In this document: piece by piece, positions 7,801 through 63,821 of the stretch
Layout: the number at the start of each line of letters is the position of its first letter
How positions within the stretch are numbered: the stretch's first letter is position 1
Source of the DNA: Lama guanicoe
Lineage: Eukaryota
DNA length: 64,000 nt
Reading direction: 5' to 3'
NCBI GenBank assembly: GCA_013239625.1
Contig: MU053216.1
Span: forward strand, 2,134,943-2,198,942
The notes under the pieces: generated by a model
The model's database searches: none
What the model saw: the letters and a program-made list of their open reading frames with translations, nothing else
What the model was told of the DNA's origin: nothing
Translations under genes and position numbers: made by a program

Positions 7801-8611
7801 TAGTGAATTTAGAGATTGCTGTACCGCCTACATACTTAATTTTAACCTTATCCTTTTAAGCAGGTAGGAACCTTGAGTGTCACGATGTCATAATTACAAG
7901 ACCAGCTTGGTAAAAACACTCAAGCCTGTTGACTGAATTCATGTAACTGCCCTGATGTGCTTATTCGCGGTAGAACGGAAAGCCAGACGTCAGCGTTTCC
8001 CCAGGCACGTTTACTTCTCACCCACTTTAAATGGGAAGTGTTATTCTCATGTGAGGAGTGCCTTGCCAGGCCAGCACTTCCCATGGTCAACAGGGTCAGA
8101 AGTCAAGTGAGAACAGCCTCCTATTTTTAAATCATGACTTTGAAGACCAGTCTGGTGGTGGTACTGGCATTTGAGGTGGAATGGATGGAGGGATGGAAAC
8201 TACAATAGTGATTCAGGACAAAAGGGTATCTTAGACGGGAAGAAAATGACTAACGAAAAGAGGACAAATCCAAGAAAAATCACTGCCATTAGGTGGCTGA
8301 TGGAATAACGGAAATGAAGGAAAAAAGAAGGGTAAAGAATATTACAGGTTTTTTACTCCATGGTTAAAATGCCTTTTTAAGGGTTTAACAAAGCTAATCA
8401 CTTCCGGTGTGATGAATGTGATGAATCAAATTTCTCAAGTAATCTCTCTGCATATTTTATTTTCCAAGTAACACCTGGGTGCATACGTTAACTCAAAGAA
8501 GGAAGGCAGTGGGAGGGCAGGAAGAGGGCAGAAATGTTAGCAGACACAGACTCGGCTTTCTGGGCAGCGGTGTAGCTGTCTTCTAAATGGCACGTGTCTT
8601 CAGAGCATCCG

Positions 8612-9062
8612 TGTTACCGAATGCAAGTTCGTGTGTCGAAGCCCAGTGAGGCCAAAAAATACAGAAATGTCAGTTTGGAGCAGAGAAAGGTTTATTGCTG
8701 GGCCAGGCAAGAATAAGTGGCTCATGCCCCCAAAATCTCCAAACTCCCTGAAAGGCTTCAGCTGAGCATTTTAAAAGGCCAGCTGAGGGAGGGACGTCCC
8801 AGGGTCTGCAATCAGTTGTGCACAATTCTCTGATTGGTTGATGGTGATCAATCCTTAGGCGCCGGAAGTTCTGGGGGGGGGGCACATGCTCATGATTATC
8901 AAGTAGTTAATTTCTTCCATTTGGTGGTGGGTTTAGCATCTGAAAAACTCAGGAAACGTGCGTGAGATAACTATTCTCTGGGTCCTTCAGACAGAAGCTG
9001 CAGCAGAGGGTATGGGGGAGGGGTCTGGCCCCCAGAAGGCCCCCAGGTTTCTGCTCATCCCA
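8612..9062 (-). mobile_element. ERV1-type solo LTR (~450 bp)
   Basis: TG...CA termini (TGTTACCGAA...CTGCTCATCCCA), a minus-strand AATAAA (TTTATT at ~8691) and a minus-strand CCAAT (CTGATTGGTT at ~8830). The motif GAGCAGAGAAAGGTTTATTG is typical of cetartiodactyl LTRs. Confidence 0.8.
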
Positions 9063-9539
9063 CTTGCTGGACGCCAGAGCTGCTGGGAGTGGGTGCCCCG
9101 CCTCCCGCCTCCCCGCCCGGGAGCCTCCGTCCCTCCACGGAGCTGGTGCAGGTTCTGATTCTGGCACTCTGTCGCTGGCTGCCTTTGTTCCCACAGCAGA
9201 GGGGACACCCACCACTGCTACCCATACACTGCGTTCACTGCAGCCACTCCTGTGGTCCCTGCTGCTTGCCAGTCCCAGAAGGTTTGTGAAAAATGACCGA
9301 AAAAAAAAAAGTTCTGGGAGTCGGTGTGGTGATGTGGCTATGGGAGAGTCACCTAGTGGCTCTGGGTTTTCTGAAAAACGAGGGGTTGGAGGAGGTGAAT
9401 CTCCAGATCTCTCCTGGTTTTCTAATTCTACAGTTCTTCCCCTGTTTCTTCTTGCCTCTTCTGCGTTTTGTCCAAGGGCTCACTTGCTTTGCGTTCCCCT
9501 GGGAAGGTGTCTTCCTGATAGACCCTGCGTGTTGGGGAA

Positions 9540-9700
9540 GCTCCTCCTCCTTCCCCAGAGCAAGCTGGCCAATCAGCGTAGCGCCTCCTCCCCCCAGAGA
9601 GAGCCGGCCAATCAGTGTAGCTCCTCCTCCTTCCTCATAGTGAGCTGACCAATCAGCGTAGCTCTTTCTTCCCCCCCAGAGAGAGCCGGCCAATCAGCGT
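9540..9700 (+). repeat. Tandem repeat of four ~40-bp units, each with a CCAAT box, organised as a duplicated ~80-bp dimer
   Basis: CCAATCAG begins at 9569, 9608, 9649 and 9690 (spacing 39, 41, 41). Approximate unit: GCTCCTCCTCC(T/C)(T/C)CCCCAGAG..AGC(T/C)GGCCAATCAGCGTA. Confidence 0.95.
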
Positions 9701-11189
9701 GTCGGGGGAAGACCCCCCCCCCCCTGCTCGGTGCTCCCTGCTGACATCAGCTTTGCTTTTCACGTATCTGCCTATTGGAAGGTGTGTAGGGTTTGATTAA
9801 TCACAAAAGAGCTTCTTTTCAGAGGGAAGGATTTTTCTGAAGTTTTTGTGGTGCTTAGGGGTTTTATAAGTTGCATCTCTAGAAATAATTGTCTTTACTA
9901 TCATGACAACACCACAAAATACTTTTCAAAGCTTTTTTTTTTCTCATGCAAAAAAACTGTAATTGTATTCCATATTACAAAAGGGAAAGTTATCTGTAGG
10001 AAGAAGAAAGGAGGGATGCACGTGGTAAATTTCGTATACGATTACCAGGTAGTGTTCTGCATTCTTGTCAAACTTTCACGGAGGAATTTTAAAGCTATTA
10101 GTGTGATCCTTTCACCCCGAAAGTGCTTAACTTGGCCCACAAACTGGACTTAATTGAATTTTTAGATGTCTATAAAATTTACAAAGTGACCATCTATAGC
10201 ATTTTCAGGTATGATCTTACTTACGGTTTATGATCTATTTTTTTTTCCATCACGTGAGCACAATTTAAATTTTTAAGACTAGCTTGCTAAATGCATCCAA
10301 AGAGAAAAGCCTTGATTAATAAAAGCCAGAGAGTTTGTCTTCTGTGGTCAGCACATAGGACTTGACAAAAGGATCTGAACTGTCAAGGATCATTTAAAAC
10401 CAATGAATTAAAAATCAGGCAGCCAGGGAGAAGCCGCCCAGAGGTGATAAGGCTCTCTGTATTTGTCTTAACAAAGGAGGTGTTAAACCAGAGCGATTTC
10501 CCCCTTCGTTCTTTCCCCCCACCAGGGAGAACCGTGAAACTCAATTTTACCCTTGGTTGAGAAGGTGCTAATTTGTCTGACAAGTGGTTGGAATTTGAGG
10601 ATGCTCAAGGTATCCTTGATGTCTCAAACCTTCACGCTGAGTGAAGCATGCTTTAAATGTGTCAATGTTTGCGAGGCTCTCTAAGTCTCATTAGGTAAGA
10701 ACAATATAAACCGCGTGAATGCAAATAGGATTGCAGGAACTGGTCCCCTCTCCAAGGGAAAACCTTCAGCATGTTCCAACCAAGGCAATTTTTGAGTCAT
10801 TCTCATTCGACTAAATATTTTATCAGAAATTAACTTTATTCTTTTATATCCTAGGAGACTTGAACAAACTTTTCTCCATTTGCTTCCTATTTCTTGAGGA
10901 GGTGGGATCTTCAAATCCTTCCCTTCATTGATTGCAGTATCAGTGAGTATTTATCAAGAAGGCTCCTAAGAGGGAGATTCATGTACATATGAAAACTTTA
11001 ATTCCTTTTCTTTTTAATTGTGTATTTATTGATTTTTCCCCTATGCTTTCTAAAGCCAAGAATTAGCTGTGTGAATGACCTTTGCATGTTAACTAAATCC
11101 TAGTTGGTAATGATTAGAAGAAAGTCCTGCTGGAGAAAAAAAGACTTTTTTTTTTAAGCACACAACTCACCCAAAGTTGCATGGTTGAT

Positions 11190-19632: not shown

Positions 19633-20777
19633 TTAACTTTTTAATTTCAAAATAATTTTAGTCTTCCAGGAAGGTTGTAATAATAGGACAGAGTTCCTGT
19701 ATCTTTCTCACCCAGATTCCTCTACTGTCAGCATCTTCTGAAAGCCTGGTAAAGTTATCAAAACTAAGAAGTTACCCCTAGTACGATGCTATCAACTGAA
19801 CTATGGATTTTGTTTGGGTTTTGCCAGTTTTCCCATTTTCATCTGTTCCAGCACCCAAGCCGGGCTCTCACGCTGCATTTAGTTACAACCTGTAACATCT
19901 TCTCTGTCTTTTCTTGTGCTTCGCAGCTTAATTTACAGGGAAATGCCCTGGTCAGTTATTATGTAAGCTACGTCTCAGTTTGGGTTTATCTGATGTGTCC
20001 CGGTGGGACACTGAGGTCGTACGGTTTTGCTGAAAGCACCACAGGTGTGCTGTGCCTGTCTCAGTGGTGACATCAGGAGGCATGTGATGTCATGTGTCTC
20101 ATTACTGGTGGCATTTATTTGTTATAGTGTGTATTCCATTTTGAGTGCCTCCCATCTCCTGGTTGATTATTTTCTAATTTACACACATGAAAGAAAGAAA
20201 GAAGGAAAGAAGGTAAGAAAGAAACCTCACTGTTTGTGGTAACAGTTCCACAGGTTTTGATGAATGCAGTCGTGCTTTCATCACCAGTCATGGTGCAGCA
20301 CATTTTTATTCCCCTCTCTCTCATTTTGCACCTTTGCAGTGAATCCCCCTCCACATCCCACCTTTTCAACTGCTGATTTGTTTCAGTTCCTGTAGTTTCC
20401 CCTGAGTAAAATGCATTTAAGATTTCTCTTCTGTCTTTTTTTTTTTTTTTGGTGTGTGTAAGCCAGGTTTGCCCCACTTCACTGCTGAATGGTGTTCCGT
20501 TGTAAGATGTAGCACAGCTTCCTGACACATTCAGTTGAGCATCTGTTTTTGATGATTGTAGGTAAAGCTGCTATAAGCATCTGCATGCAGATGCAGGTCC
20601 GGGCTCAGTTCTTTCCCATAAGGGTGTCCAGTTTCTCCAGCATCACAAAATTGCCTTTGCACTTTTCTAAAGATTCAGTTGACTAGATCTGTCTGGGTCC
20701 ACCTCTGGACTTCTGTTCTATTAGTCGTTGACTCTGTCTTTTCATTGTTACCATGTCGTCTTTATTACTGTCACTTT

Positions 20778-21155
20778 TGTTAAAGAAAAGTTAACCAAGT
20801 ACATTTGAAGCTGTAATTGGCTTTATTCAGGGATTCACGAATCAGGCAGCACACTGTGCAGCAAGTACAAAGCAGCTCCGAGGAGCTGTGCAGAATGAAA
20901 GAGGCAGAAAGAGGCAGGGCGAGGAAGCTGCTCCAGCAAAGGTGGATTGTTTCAGCTGAGGCGCCTTCCTGCGGGGAAGGATGGGGTCTGTCGCCCAGGT
21001 GACCTCCTAGGGCTGAAGGTCATTCCAGACTGGCTACGGGGCGCGTTCCTGGGAGGGGCCGAAACTGCTGTCAGGGACGGTCCTAAGTGGTGGTTTGCTG
21101 GTATGGGGCTTCGCACAAGTGGCTCGGTCTTGGGCCTGTTGTTCCTTTTTCAACA
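20778..21155 (-). mobile_element. ERV1-type solo LTR (378 bp) nested in L1, with a 4-bp TSD
   Basis: Termini TGTT...AACA. TSD CTTT at 20774-20777 and 21156-21159. Removing the insert rejoins the L1 motif TTACTGTCACTTTGTAGTAAGTCTTGAAATC. Minus-strand AATAAA at ~20822. Confidence 0.85.
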
Positions 21156-21367
21156 CTTTGTAGTAAGTCTTGAAATCGGGAGTATGAGTATCAGCTTTGT
21201 TCTTTTCAAAATTATTGGGACTCTTCTGGTTCCTTTCTCTTTCCATGTACATTTTAAAATCAGCTTGTCAGTCTCTTCCTCCCCTAGAAAAACCCCATCT
21301 TGCCTGGATTGTGATTGAAATTATAATGAATCTATAGATAATTATTAAGCCTCCACAATGCTGTCTT

Positions 21368-26185: not shown

Positions 26186-27199
26186 AGGTGTTTTATTCAT
26201 CTGTGTGTCTTGGGCACCCAGCACAGTTCCCAGGAGCAGACCCCATGGTTTGCATTGACTATGCATTGTTTAATGGGTTTAGGTCTTTTGATGACATTGG
26301 GGAAAATGGTAAAAATCAGAAACTTTGGTAATTGGATAATGATGAAGTGAGAGAAAAATATGTCCGAGCATTTTTGGGTAAAAAAAAAATGGAGGGGGCT
26401 AGGATTTGATTAGGAGAGAGCAAGCCTGGATTAAAATGCACAGATATACTCAGGGAGCCAACGGCCCTGATGCCCCTCTAGGCAAGGGCGTGACTTGAGG
26501 ACAGTAGCTCGCCCGCTGTCCCTTGCTGTTTGACAATGTTAACGGGCAGGAAGCCAGTAACGATTTATAAACCGCTGTCGGAGCTGAAGCTGACGTGGCC
26601 CCGACCCCACCGGACGTGCAGAGTGGGCAGGAGGTCTCGGTGGGGAGGGGCTTTCCTTCGTGCCTGTTCCCACCTCACACATTGTTCCGCTTCCAAGCTC
26701 CCCAGCTCCCTTATTTCTGACAACACAGAGCCTGAGGTTGACCTGTGGGGGGAGCCTTTGCGGCCGGTTGCAGATGAAACACAGGCTGCTCCGTGAAACT
26801 GAAGTTCAGATGGAGAAAGGAGGGTCTTGCAGGATGAGTACGTTTCACGTGACGCTTGGGGTCAACGCGTATTTTGGAATTTCTCTTTATTTACCGAAGT
26901 CCAAATGTCACTGGGGTGTCTCTGCCGCTCCACTTACCACCCACGTTGCTTTCAGAAGACGTCGTTAACTAGCTCGGATGCACAAAGCTCCTGGGTTGCC
27001 TCTCAGCACCGCGCGGGAAGCCTGTAGGCTTAAAGCCAAGCACAGGTGGGGACAGTTCTGTTGTTATTAGATGCTCTGAGTTGATGTGTGATCGTTTCAA
27101 AGGTGACACTCTTTATGTTGCTGTTTTGAGAACGGATGGACTTTTTAAAAAAGAGATGTCACCGTAGATTTGAAAGAGGGAACCCGGTAAATCACAGAA

Positions 27200-28050
27200 C
27201 GAACCAGCCGGAAGGAAGCGGAGCCCTGGGTCAGGCCCCGTCGTTTCAGGGCAAAGGCGCTGAACCGGCAGAGCGGACTGAAACCGCGGGGTCAGACGTG
27301 GGAGGCCGGTTACCTCGCTCAACAGCGCGGGCGCGCGCAGGTGGCTTCGGCCTCTGCGCTTCGGTTTCCTGCTTCGGCCACGGGGACTCCGAGTCTGGAA
27401 AGGCCCCGAGCTGCTCCCCGCTCGCCCGCAGCAGCTGGGCCGCCGCCAGGCCTGCCCGCCCGGCCCGGGCCACCGCGGCCGCCCTGCGTCGCTGAGGCGA
27501 CCGTCGCGTCTGTTCCTCCCCGCGGGCGGGCACCGAGCGCCCCACCTCGGTGCGGTGAACCAGCAGCTGGAACTCGGCCCCGCCGGCCAGAATGCGTGGG
27601 CAAGAGCAAGTGACACTGCTCATAAAAACAGGCAGACAGAAGCCTAGGGCGTCCGTGTCGGGGGCCGGAGTGCGCTCCCCTCGGGAGCCCTGCCCGGGTC
27701 GTCCGGGCACCTCGTGACCAGGGAAGCCCCTTGGGTGCTGCTGCCGCCTCAAAACTCCAAAACGCCGATTCTTCTCAGCACGAGATGCTCGCTCATCCGC
27801 CGTGTCCCTCGTGCTCCCGGCCCTGCTGCCGTCGCGTCCTGGGAGGCGGCGCTTCTCACTGCGCGGCCCGAGCCGGTGGCCCTGCGCCGGGCACGCGATG
27901 CGGACGCGCGGGCCCCGTGCGCCTGAGGCTGGAGGCGGAGCCCGGCGGCCGTGCTGGTGACGCGGGAGGGTGTGGGGGCGCCTGGCCGACGTCCGGGGAC
28001 CCCGGCCCGGGGCTTCGCCCCGCGAGCCCTCAGGTCCGCCTGCTTCTCGC
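27200..28050. promoter_or_regulatory. CpG island; candidate internal or bidirectional promoter
   Basis: About 850 bp of GC- and CpG-dense non-repeat sequence, with ETS-like CCGGAAG (~27208) and a minus-strand donor GAG|GTAACC at 27313. Confidence 0.8.
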
Positions 28051-53460: not shown

Positions 53461-54334
53461 TGCTTGAGTGATGTTAGAGAAATGGAGTTGCAGAGCTGGA
53501 CCAGGGCCTCAGAGACCAGCGAGTCCACTGGTCCTTGGAGCCCTGCGTGTTCCCTGTGTGTGTCCCAGAGCCAGGCGTGGGGTTGGCGGCGGAGCAAGAG
53601 GACATGTGAAGATCAGGTTTATGCCTTATGCTTGCTCGCTTGCTTTTCTTTTTCTTTTTGGCTTGAAGAAGGGGACATACTGCTTTCAAACTTTGAAAAC
53701 CTCTATTTCTAGTCCAGACCCTCATTTTTATAGCTGAAGAAACCAATTAAGAGCAAAGAAGTTATTTTCCCATTTGTTCAGCTAGGTAATACTGGTGTTA
53801 GACCAGAAGCGTGGTCTAATGTCTTACGTGTGATGCACATTCAGTCTGCTTAGCCTTTAATTCAAAAATCTATACAAAATTTAATTATCTTTGGCTTTCA
53901 GTCCAGAAAGCTGACTTTCTGTTGTCACCAGAAAGAGACATACTCTTTATGGATAAAGCCAAATAGAGAAACAGTGTGGATGGTGCTCAGTCTGTCAAAA
54001 CGATATCCCGTCATCTCAGCACTACAGTCTATGAAGGTGTCATTTAGATGTGGTAAGTCATGAGTGTTGGCTGCGTGAGGGCCTTATGGACTTAGAGAAA
54101 ACTAACATACGAAAGAGAGGGATCTCTTTCTATGGAGCATGAAGGAAAATCCAGTTGAAAGGAGAAAATCCAATGCTCGTTACTGAGGTTTCACCCAACC
54201 CCCGGGGAAGGGTCCTTCAGTCTCCGTGTGTCGTGTCTACACGAGGTCAAGTGCCCAGTGCTCCTGGGTGTCAAGACGTTTGTACAGAGGCAAGTTCAGA
54301 TGACTGTTTTTGGTTTGCTTTGGTTTTTCTTCAG

Positions 54335-54356
54335 ATTGTCTGCTATGAGGGCTCAG
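54335..54356 (+). other. Candidate 22-nt micro-exon (ATTGTCTGCTATGAGGGCTCAG)
   Basis: Branch-like TGAC (54301), a long T-rich tract, a TTCTTCAG acceptor, then the consensus donor CAG|GTAAGT at 54357. Confidence 0.45.
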
Positions 54357-54425
54357 GTAAGTGGCGTACTATCATTGGATCAAATTGTGTTCAAATAAAA
54401 TAACTGCGTAATACGTTCCTTTTCT

Positions 54426-60985: not shown

Positions 60986-61339
60986 CTAAACCTAATGCCT
61001 CGAAGAACAGAAAGTACTTTCTAAATCCTTAGGAAAACAGAAGGAAAAGATTGTAGTTTGAGGGAAGGAGGGGGACTATGCTTGGATTTAAGGGGGAAAA
61101 AAGTGATTCCATCACAAAGAGAGATTTCCTCAAGAGAAGAAGAATGAAAGTGTGGAATAAAACCCTCGCCTTTGGACCCAAATGGAATGTCTGTCACACT
61201 GGACTGGATGCTCTGGTGTTAAGTAATGTGTATTTAATTTTATAAACCACATATTCCAGTTTTAGGGTAAAAAAGCTATTTAACGTTCTCTTCAGCTTCC
61301 CAGGAAGCGTTCTGCTCTATAAAGTGGTCAACAGAGGAT

Positions 61340-61945
61340 GAAACCGCGGAGGCGCAGGACTGCAGCGCGGTGGCTCTGACCTGGGGGCGCACGGGTCCCA
61401 GCAGCGCCGTCTTCTCAGGGCCTCGGGCCAGCTCAGTTCTCAAGCTCGGGCTCCGCCCCCAACCTCCGCACTGCGGATAAAATCACCTCTTGTCACAGGT
61501 CCAAGTGAATCAATATCCCCTGAATGAACTTCTCTTCAAAGGCAAGAAAGAGCCAGAAGTATCCATGGCTTAGTGACTTTTAATTCTTTAAATCCGTGGG
61601 CCAAGTCGGTGATACAGCAGATGGCGTAGTTAGTAGTTCCAGAACTTGGCCTTCTACCAGCGCCACCGAGGGGGCTGGCTTGGAGAGCGCGTTCCCGGGT
61701 TCAGCCCCAGGAATGCTGGCGCGGCTCCTGCCTCTGCGCCGGGAGCGTGGCGTCCGCCGTGAGCGAGCTGCCGTGAGCTCAGCACCCGCGCGAGCCCTGG
61801 CCCGCGGGCGCGCGGGGCTGGGGTGTGCGCTCGCTCGCCCAGCCCTCGCCTTGCTTCCGCTGGGCCTCGGCTCCTTCGGCGGCTCCTTCGGCAGCTCACC
61901 GGCCAGTGGGTTTACCTGCGTGCGCCGCCCCCCAGCTGTGGGCCC
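61340..61945. promoter_or_regulatory. CpG island; candidate promoter
   Basis: CpG-dense at 61340-61480 and 61655-61940, with a GC box CTCCGCCCC (~61451) and two minus-strand donors: CAG|GTAAAC (61915) and CCG|GTGAGC (61899). Confidence 0.75.
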
Positions 61946-63821
61946 TTTTCCTTTATTTCCCTGCAAGAGCTCTTCACCCTTTGTTTCTTCATGGCTCCTA
62001 GAAGTTCTCTGATTTTTCTCCTAGACTCCCTGCAAGAGCTTCTGGGCGTTGGGGGAAAGGCGGGATGCGGAGGGGTTGACTCTGGTAGCTTCTGCCGAGA
62101 GAGAACCTGCGAGAAAACTCGCCTCTACCCTCTGTCAGAACTGAGGTCCGTTCACTTAGCCCCCGAGTCTTACTACGTGAGACAGCCCTGGGGCGCAGTC
62201 GTCCACGTCTGTTTCTGTTCCTCTAACATCTGCTTGTCTACTGTCCAGGACGAGGGGGCAAGAATAAAAGCATCTTGCCCCATTTTGTTGAACATTCTTC
62301 CTCAAATTGCTTTTAATTTTTATATTTTCGAAGTTGTGAAGTCTTTCCAACGTAGGAAAAGTATTGGACAGTAACTTAATAAACATCTGTGTATCTGCCG
62401 TGCAGAATTAGCACATACCAACATTTGCTACAGTTGATCTCTTGTGTGTGGTTGGTGGGAGTGTAAGTGTATAACCGCTTTGGTAAATTGACGTTATCTA
62501 CTAAAGCAGCCCCATGCACGTCCTGCAGCCCAGCGCTTCCCCTCCTAGAAGCGCACGCTCACGTACATTGATGTCCGTGAACCAAAACGCAGCTGAGCCC
62601 CACACGGGCCGCATTTATTATCTTCAGAACAGCGTGTTAGCCTCTGTAGGTGTTTAAAACTCCTAAAATCATTGCTTTCATACTCCTAGAAGTTTTCCAA
62701 GTCTACATAATCCAAAATTCTCAAAACTTATTTTCATTTATTCCAAACAGATCTTTTTTTTTTCTTTCACTTACTGATAATCCTCAACCTCCCAGGCCCT
62801 GGTACATTTTATTTTCCTCTATTAATCACTTTTGCAGCATCATGAAGTGAGTGCCATCTCAGAACGTAATCTGTCAATGTTTACTCCTCCTTCCAAGTCG
62901 TTAACAGGCGGCATAAAACAAGTCCGCCCCTGGCCTTTTGTCATCCCCTGAACCGCCGTCTTCTCCGTTCAGGGCACTGACCTTTTTCATGACTTGCTGC
63001 TTCAATGCCAGTGACAGGATGTTTAACCAAATCATTTTTTAAGCATTTTCTCAGAGTGCTTTATACTGCAATGCATCAGACGTCCTAGAACACTGGTACC
63101 CTCTCTGTTGAGTTTGTTATTTACTGATACTGCTTGTCCCTGAATGGTTAGTTTCGTATTTTAAAATTTCATGGCACTTTCTAGTTTCTCATCCATCTTC
63201 CTTATTCAAGGTTTTACCTTTTTTTAAAAAAAACTGGAGTAACACTATATACCCCTGGGCTATACCCGCACGCCCTTACTGTATTTTTCAACAATGAACC
63301 AGTTCCTTTTGGAGAATCTGAAAAGTGACACGGGCAGGCGAATTGTGTCTATGAAAGCTAACGAGAGCTCTCCAAAAGCAGCACGCAAATGTTTAGCAAG
63401 GTTCTGTGGCCGCTGTAAAAGTGAAGTCCCTCAACCAAGGGCCCTTGTGCAAATCATCTGCGCCCACTAGACGTGGCGCGGGCAGAGACATCAGGGCGGT
63501 GCAGGTGTCGAGACGCTGAGCGCTAGGATCGCACCAGGTGCCAGCGGCGATGGGTCTCGCCTGCCCCTTCCCCACCTCCGCTCCACTCCACATTGCTTCC
63601 TGTCTTCTGTGAGCCCGTGCTCTCATGCGCACACAGGAGAAGGAGCTGCCGACTGCTCACCAGGTCCTGTGCTGGGGCTTCAGAGATAAACGAGACCTGA
63701 ATACAAGATGGTCCGACAAGTAATTCTCAGTCCCCATCTTTCCTGGCCACTTAGCACCCTTCCACTGTTGACCACCCCTTCTGCCTCAGTATGCTGAGAC
63801 GTGGCTTCTGCTCCCCACACT

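Follow-up and report, generated by a model that had tools for sequence, protein, structure and literature searches.

A row of four CCAAT boxes in guanaco DNA is best read, with middling confidence, as an old single-copy tandem duplication that has probably become a docking row for NF-Y, silent or weakly enhancer-like, and not as a promoter tuned by copy number. The first-pass annotation of this DNA had predicted NF-Y binding, promoter activity and copy-number tuning; judged from the sequence, the first is likely, whilst the other two are unsupported. The array is also not a singular object, being one of a small recurring class of CCAAT minisatellites in this genome.

Anatomy of the array

The CCAATCAG boxes described earlier are all present, starting at 9569, 9608, 9649 and 9690; the plus strand of the window (the whole 64-kb stretch of DNA analysed here) has no others. 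Their spacing of 39, 41 and 41 bp bears out the proposed unit of about four helical turns, and the CT-rich tract said to precede each box is found in all four units (Table 1). The optimum consensus for NF-Y is Y-R-R-CCAAT-CAG. All four boxes match it, in keeping with their prediction as near-optimal NF-Y sites, and the looser pattern YRRCCAATSR occurs elsewhere in the window at only two sites, both single and on the minus strand.

TRF describes the array as 4.0 copies of a 41-bp period (78% matches) or, alternatively, as 2.0 copies of an 80-bp period (87%). The units are mutually 76-90% alike. Units 1 and 3 are identical at 36/41 positions and units 2 and 4 at 35/39, compared with 31-34 for mixed pairs, so that the suggested A-B-A-B alternation stands as far as the closest pairs are concerned; the effect is modest, however, and few columns decide it. 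Beyond the fourth box come a C run and then AAG/GTGTGT with its GT at 9782, both as previously noted. The C run is accounted for by a decayed fifth unit that contains it and in which one box has been lost; the alignment score of this segment against unit 1 was reached by 0/2000 dinucleotide shuffles. A sixth unit to the left of 9527 is unsupported, 18-153 of 300 shuffles attaining its alignment score. The clustering of the boxes is thus beyond chance, but it is the product of tandem duplication and not of four independent sites.

Table 1. Coordinates of the array, of its surroundings and of related loci (window positions unless a locus or contig is named)
Feature	Position	Strand	Remarks
Solo LTR	8612..9057	-	446 bp, TG...CA; imperfect 4-bp flanking duplication TCCG/TCCC; dispersed family
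LTR signals	CCAAT 8837; TATA-like TTTTAAAA 8776; AATAAA 8696	-	
Spacer, LTR to array	9058..9526		single-copy (9058-9500 single copy in genome); covered by contigs from two other organisms
Unit 1 leader	9527..9538	+	recurs at 9697; marks longer, ~53-bp outer unit form (alignment 9527-9579 vs 9697-9753)
Tandem array, four 39-41-bp units	9539..9700	+	each unit a CT-rich tract, then Y-R-R-CCAATCAG; ~80-bp dimer substructure
NF-Y-type box 1, TGGCCAATCAG	9566..9576	+	predicted from sequence
NF-Y-type box 2, CGGCCAATCAG	9605..9615	+	predicted from sequence
NF-Y-type box 3, TGACCAATCAG	9646..9656	+	predicted from sequence
NF-Y-type box 4, CGGCCAATCAG	9687..9697	+	predicted from sequence
Decayed fifth unit with C run	9697..9753	+	CCAAT lost; 38/52 aligned positions match unit 1 with leader
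Candidate donor-like site, AAG/GTGTGT	9779..9787	+	5.1 bits vs 8.8 for real NR5A2 donor (rough matrix)
Thirteen unrelated arrays	L059, L060, L063, L095, L096, L099-L104, L111, L112		
CCAAT-rich LTR family, examples	L064-L091		e.g. L073:1250-1782 (same contig near 1517650-1518180)

Age, copy number and retention of the boxes

The two dimer copies of the array differ by 13% and its units are 10-24% diverged, and active turnover is therefore unlikely. Over 9061-9515 the flank shows 19 substitutions in 455 bp relative to a contig from organism E, so that at equal rates the last duplication would predate the split from that organism, at about three times its age. A contig from organism D (DNA run X11) spans 9060-9724 and differs by 8 substitutions in ~665 bp of flank. 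It carries the same four units, with no indel in the array and with two substitutions there, both outside the boxes.

The earlier description of the array as a VNTR finds no backing in the diverged units or in this unchanged unit number, which was compared in one other haplotype, a single haplotype being compatible with variation. The same two observations leave the idea that copy number could tune activity unsupported, organism D being the only other organism in which the array is spanned. Copy number cannot be read from word shares, which came to 0.74-0.84 in 14 runs of genomic type from four organisms.

Across the units, 13 of 41 columns vary, the longest invariant run is exactly CCAATCAG, and the positions flanking the boxes that do vary stay inside the NF-Y consensus. 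Such invariance has P=0.03 for a pre-chosen 8-column window and P=0.49 for any invariant run of at least 8. Retention of the boxes may thus be taken as weak evidence of selection, weak because the locus was picked for its intact boxes; the decayed fifth unit did lose its own.

Recurrence of CCAAT arrays in the genome

Three copies of CCAATCAG at a period of 38-42 bp are found at 5 independent loci including the window array (7 matches), compared with 0 loci for 7 control octamers, namely the reversed box and three anagrams in both directions, which were unmatched for genome-wide frequency; CCAATCAG is common in LTR families here. At a period of 26-37 bp there are 11 loci (19 matches), and 0 for the reverse control. 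At least 15 other three-box arrays therefore exist at periods of 26-42 bp, and 14 of the 15 fall within 2 bp of 31 or 41 bp (P=0.001 against a uniform null, with the window array left out, although this null is uncalibrated and the 2-bp tolerance was set post hoc). The phasing test covered periods of 26-42 bp, with anagram controls for 38-42 bp only, and the local period background comprises 9 TRF rows, of which 4 are at 31-32; these are too few for calibration, and the background is not flat-looking. A stronger figure of 17/18 (P=2e-5) was discarded because the set had included C2250, whose true period is 25-26, and C12520, which has spacings of 50 and 54 and no tandem repeat; both were dropped. 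The other extra hits of that set were multiples of shorter periods.

Thirteen of these three-box arrays have unrelated units, with periods of 29-32 (nine), 34-35 (one) and 40-41 bp (three). The array at L060 repeats a 40-bp unit 12 times, has a GC-box-like word and lies directly after a donor-like site, and that at L103 lies within CpG-island-like DNA. Two of the 15 other arrays (C8676 and C6178) are inside copies of the family to which the LTR next to the window array belongs, and two others, searched genome-wide, are both single-copy. At L062:1483-1615 and L105:1477-1838, copies of that LTR family have a single CCAAT segment expanded into arrays of 42 bp x 3.2 and 29 bp x 12.8, respectively.

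A search for three boxes at any period of 20-50 bp gave 1890 overlapping matches, and 98 of the first 100 listed belong, by eye, to a single family of CCAAT-rich solo LTRs, which accounts for most of the total. Its members are ~530 bp long (TG...CA) and carry 4-8 CCAAT boxes spaced 23-24 bp apart, together with one or two ATGCAAAT octamer words in 13 of the 14 copies counted. This CCAAT/octamer family is the real LTR12-like family of the genome. Its combination of NF-Y and octamer words suggests a promoter family of the early embryo or germ line, and its spacing is close to the 24-bp minimum for NF-Y given in the available part of PMC4982600.

Genomic setting

No coding exon was recognised in the window. 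Scanning 484 kb, made up of the window and 420 kb of flanking DNA, gave one clear exon, on the minus strand, with 47/47 residues identical to the DNA-binding domain of NR5A2, which acts as a regulator in endoderm, ovary and the early embryo. The strand and position of this exon place the array on the 5' side of NR5A2. From the preceding NR5A2 coding exon to the first box is 200,681 bp, with no coding exon recognised between. The CpG-island, gene-proximal setting that is typical of multi-CCAAT promoters is not found at the array: CpG observed/expected is 0.41 over 9439-9800 and does not exceed 0.42 in any GC-rich 400-bp window of the 3-kb locus.

Strand skew becomes positive at the 5' end of NR5A2 and stays so in every bin for ~310 kb, a run that spans the window. 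A replication origin or asymmetry would fit this run, as would a long plus-strand unit transcribed divergently. In contig coordinates the TA+GC skew is positive over ~1,955,000-2,265,000, unbroken from the NR5A2 5' end, with a sharp end near 2.265 Mb; these ~310 kb may be the trace of a long, divergent and unannotated transcription unit with the window inside it. Within the window, CpG-island-like patches with no recognised gene lie at 1-620, 27000-28050 and 61300-62100, and the stretches 54330-54357 and 53903-54057 look, by eye, like plus-strand exons, with a pyrimidine tract, AG and GTAAGT donors, which makes them candidate exons of a plus-strand non-coding RNA. Downstream of the window, two identical exon-like stretches 2291 bp apart (L021:5616-5808 and L021:7907-8099) point to a duplication, either a recent local one or one made in the assembly.

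Predicted NF-Y binding and the neutral alternative

The history that we infer for the array is that a unit of roughly 50 bp was duplicated and shortened to ~41 bp, that the 80-bp dimer was then duplicated and that expansion ceased. NF-Y trimers would bind the resulting row on one face of the helix, a spacing of 41 bp being above the 24-bp minimum footprint and on a known spacing peak. The CT-rich tracts could add candidate sites of the Sp/KLF type. As described in the available parts of two papers, CCAAT dimers in NF-Y-bound DNA have spacing peaks at 31, 41 and 52 bp and a minimum of 24 bp (PMC4982600), ~20% of good motifs in unmodified chromatin are occupied by NF-Y, and 49% of NF-Y sites have negligible Pol II or RNA (PMC3730095). 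Given this occupancy and this proportion of quiet sites, an array that is bound but silent or weakly enhancer-like is the most likely state.

The array might instead be a neutral, unbound minisatellite in a long intron or in intergenic DNA, with boxes that survive by chance and with at most a cryptic plus-strand exon (9680-9781) to show for it. The ease with which an invariant run of eight columns arises somewhere in the unit speaks for this reading, which we regard as unlikely, as do the depletion of CpG at the array, the CpG-to-TpG change at 9582 in organism D and the long positive skew, if this reflects plus-strand transcription or replication asymmetry. Segment 9680-9781 is third of 209 exon-like candidates in the 484 kb under a rough matrix, and it ranks high because CT tracts end in AG. 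However, its acceptor AG at 9678-9679 is altered in organism D, and no splice joint was seen. What also tells against neutrality is that CCAATCAG arrays across the genome are phased and outnumber those of the controls, and four optimal sites are, on the available part of PMC3730095, of the kind that NF-Y can bind in closed chromatin.

The neighbouring LTR and possible leftward activity

A solo LTR was reported ~480 bp upstream of the array. It ends 482 bp to the left, as stated, but it is 'upstream' in window coordinates only: the LTR is in minus orientation, so that its U3 (5') end faces the array, the LTR itself points away, and its own promoter has the array on the 5' side. The orientation agrees with the occurrence of AATAAA on this (minus) strand in 7 of 11 family copies examined and on the opposite strand in 0 of 11. 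The family is large, with 2405 candidates, of which 40 were scored, giving at least 39 other copies at 78-81%. The LTR is a neighbour and not a part of the array. Further solo-LTR-like elements were noted by eye at 1925-2371 and 20775-21156, the ends of the former resembling those of the 8612-9057 element.

Such a geometry, with repeats 5' of the promoter as in LTR12, raises the possibility that the array works leftwards, as a minus-strand promoter or as an enhancer of the solo LTR's promoter, with RNA running into the LTR (to the poly(A) signal) or towards NR5A2. That NR5A2 is itself on the minus strand, 200.7 kb away with the intervening DNA free of recognised coding exons, is consistent with this, and a contig from RNA library X17 (organism E) covers 9061-9515 and continues for 141 letters into the LTR. 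Contigs carry no strand, start or level, however, and this one, from a single study, may derive from DNA in the library. The contig stops at 9515, 12 bp before the array leader and without a loose end, whereas DNA run X11 continues; such an end would suit a transcription start, a splice branch (minus-strand AG) or an assembly break equally well and, coming from one study, is not counted as evidence. Between array and LTR there is a single minus-strand donor, which is weak (3.4 bits, at 9483), and the regional skew favours plus-strand and not minus-strand germline transcription. Leftward activity is a decidedly unlikely function for the array.

Proposed plus-strand transcription

The first-pass annotation proposed an internal plus-strand promoter starting at 9720-9780, with an exon closed by the 9782 donor and a strength set by unit number; this now seems very improbable. 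The boxes are in sense orientation, as in LTR12, regional skew is compatible with plus-strand transcription, and a donor matching the one at 9782 has a probability of only ~0.05 of lying within 100 bp of a given point. On the other hand, that donor is middling, 32 plus-strand sites in the window scoring as high. No splice joint, there or elsewhere, and no start or end sites appear in the contigs, which came from 2 of 4 runs (RNA and DNA) and by their nature do not show starts. There is no TATA-like word on the plus strand within 300 bp downstream of the array, the first being at 10171, there is no CpG island, strand skew makes no step at the array, and no copy-number difference was seen. A second contig from RNA library X17 covers 10004-10244; 9732-9983 is covered by no contig, which is not taken as absence of transcription. 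Small word shares (0.06-0.13) in six RNA or possibly-RNA runs were rejected as evidence of transcription. The TALE (PBX/PREP) decamer of Sp2-type modules has no match on either strand in 9401-9900.

Relation to dispersed repeats

The array was predicted to be independent of the LTR and of any dispersed repeat, and within the limits of what is detectable in this genome the prediction holds. Both 9500-9800 and 9058-9500 are single-copy in the guanaco assembly except for one 67-bp match (81%, E 5.7e-7), in a search where lack of a match is not proof of rarity. When CCAATCAG was masked, all five alignments of the array with five other arrays or LTR repeats scored within the shuffle range. The same was true of its masked alignment with the units of the 23-24-bp CCAAT/octamer LTR family, and 9060-9900 gave no BLAST match at E<0.01 to 28 loci of that family. 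There are 0 Rfam matches in 8400-10400. We take 9320-9430 to be MIR-like in look, and local BLAST of this stretch found no relative. By these comparisons, the array appears to be unrelated to the neighbouring LTR and to the CCAAT-rich LTR family of the genome.

A last and improbable alternative is that an ancient LTR or other dispersed repeat, by now so diverged that searches miss it, left the array and its flanks behind as a worn remnant, and that the boxes were inherited from it. In favour of this, the two arrays within the neighbouring LTR's family indicate that LTRs seed such arrays here, and the 67-bp match exists elsewhere in the genome. Against it, that match has no CCAAT and extends into neither flank above shuffles, the array and spacer are otherwise single-copy, and masked similarity is at shuffle level.

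Comparison with known systems

A more ambitious scheme, to which we give very little credence, would have the array fire leftwards as an NF-Y promoter or enhancer: it would use the solo LTR and serve NR5A2 either as a regulator far upstream or as an alternative first exon. It would then also belong to a set of at least 16 unrelated minisatellites that have converged on CCAAT spacings of three and four turns because duplications of this kind are favoured or selected by NF-Y binding. Should the docking row that we favour prove active, plain tandem duplication would have built an LTR12-like row of NF-Y sites with no retrovirus involved, and would have done so in the NR5A2 regulatory desert. By itself the locus adds little, since the principle is known from the human ABO gene. 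More useful is the genome-wide pattern, in which unrelated CCAAT minisatellites cluster near 31 and 41 bp, raising the question of whether NF-Y geometry selects such duplications or NF-Y binding promotes them.

In the literature covered on NR5A2 upstream elements, camelid LTRs, CCAAT VNTRs and retroviral NF-Y duplications, mostly non-subscription papers, no account of the locus was found, and the available part of PMC10688478 has nothing on the array region. The BORIS minisatellite was considered as a parallel and set aside; as far as the source goes, it is not a CCAAT array.

Multi-CCAAT NF-Y promoters, whose direct repeats are helically phased, resemble the array, as far as the available part of PMC4982600 describes them, in that its same-direction boxes at 39-41 bp lie on their 41-bp peak. 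They differ in being gene-proximal with a main peak at 31 bp, whereas the array is distal and CpG-depleted. The U3 repeats of LTR12/ERV9, a dispersed primate family, are, in the part of PMC11853044 that was available, units of ~41 nt with a CCAAT box; they number 5-17, have GATA and MZF1 sites as well and lie inside the LTR. The likeness to LTR12 that had been drawn for the array is borne out in design, by the ~41-nt tandem CCAAT units and, if the neighbouring LTR is counted, by their position 5' of an LTR promoter. In contrast to LTR12, the array is single-copy, has four boxes and is not within the U3 of a dispersed LTR, the LTR ending at 9057 and the array starting at 9539.

The closest known system is the CBF/NF-Y enhancer minisatellite of human ABO, which, on the available part of PMC7187371, consists of four 43-bp units at -3931 to -3650 that bind NF-Y and enhance a reporter in one cell line; its copy number is allele-dependent and its effect in vivo is disputed. 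A minisatellite of NF-Y sites outside an LTR is therefore an idea already known from ABO, so far as that source describes it. Like the ABO element, the array is a tandem repeat at a single locus, lies outside any LTR and away from a proximal promoter, and consists of four units of about four helical turns (39-41 bp compared with 43 bp), each with one CCAAT motif. Unlike ABO, where NF-Y binding is demonstrated and alleles vary, the array has boxes predicted from sequence and units that are 10-24% diverged, no copy-number allele was seen, and the nearest recognised gene is 200 kb off. The likeness is drawn from the description of the ABO element and not from its sequence, and it is one of design: in both cases a short tandem duplication outside any LTR has set CCAAT boxes about four helical turns apart.
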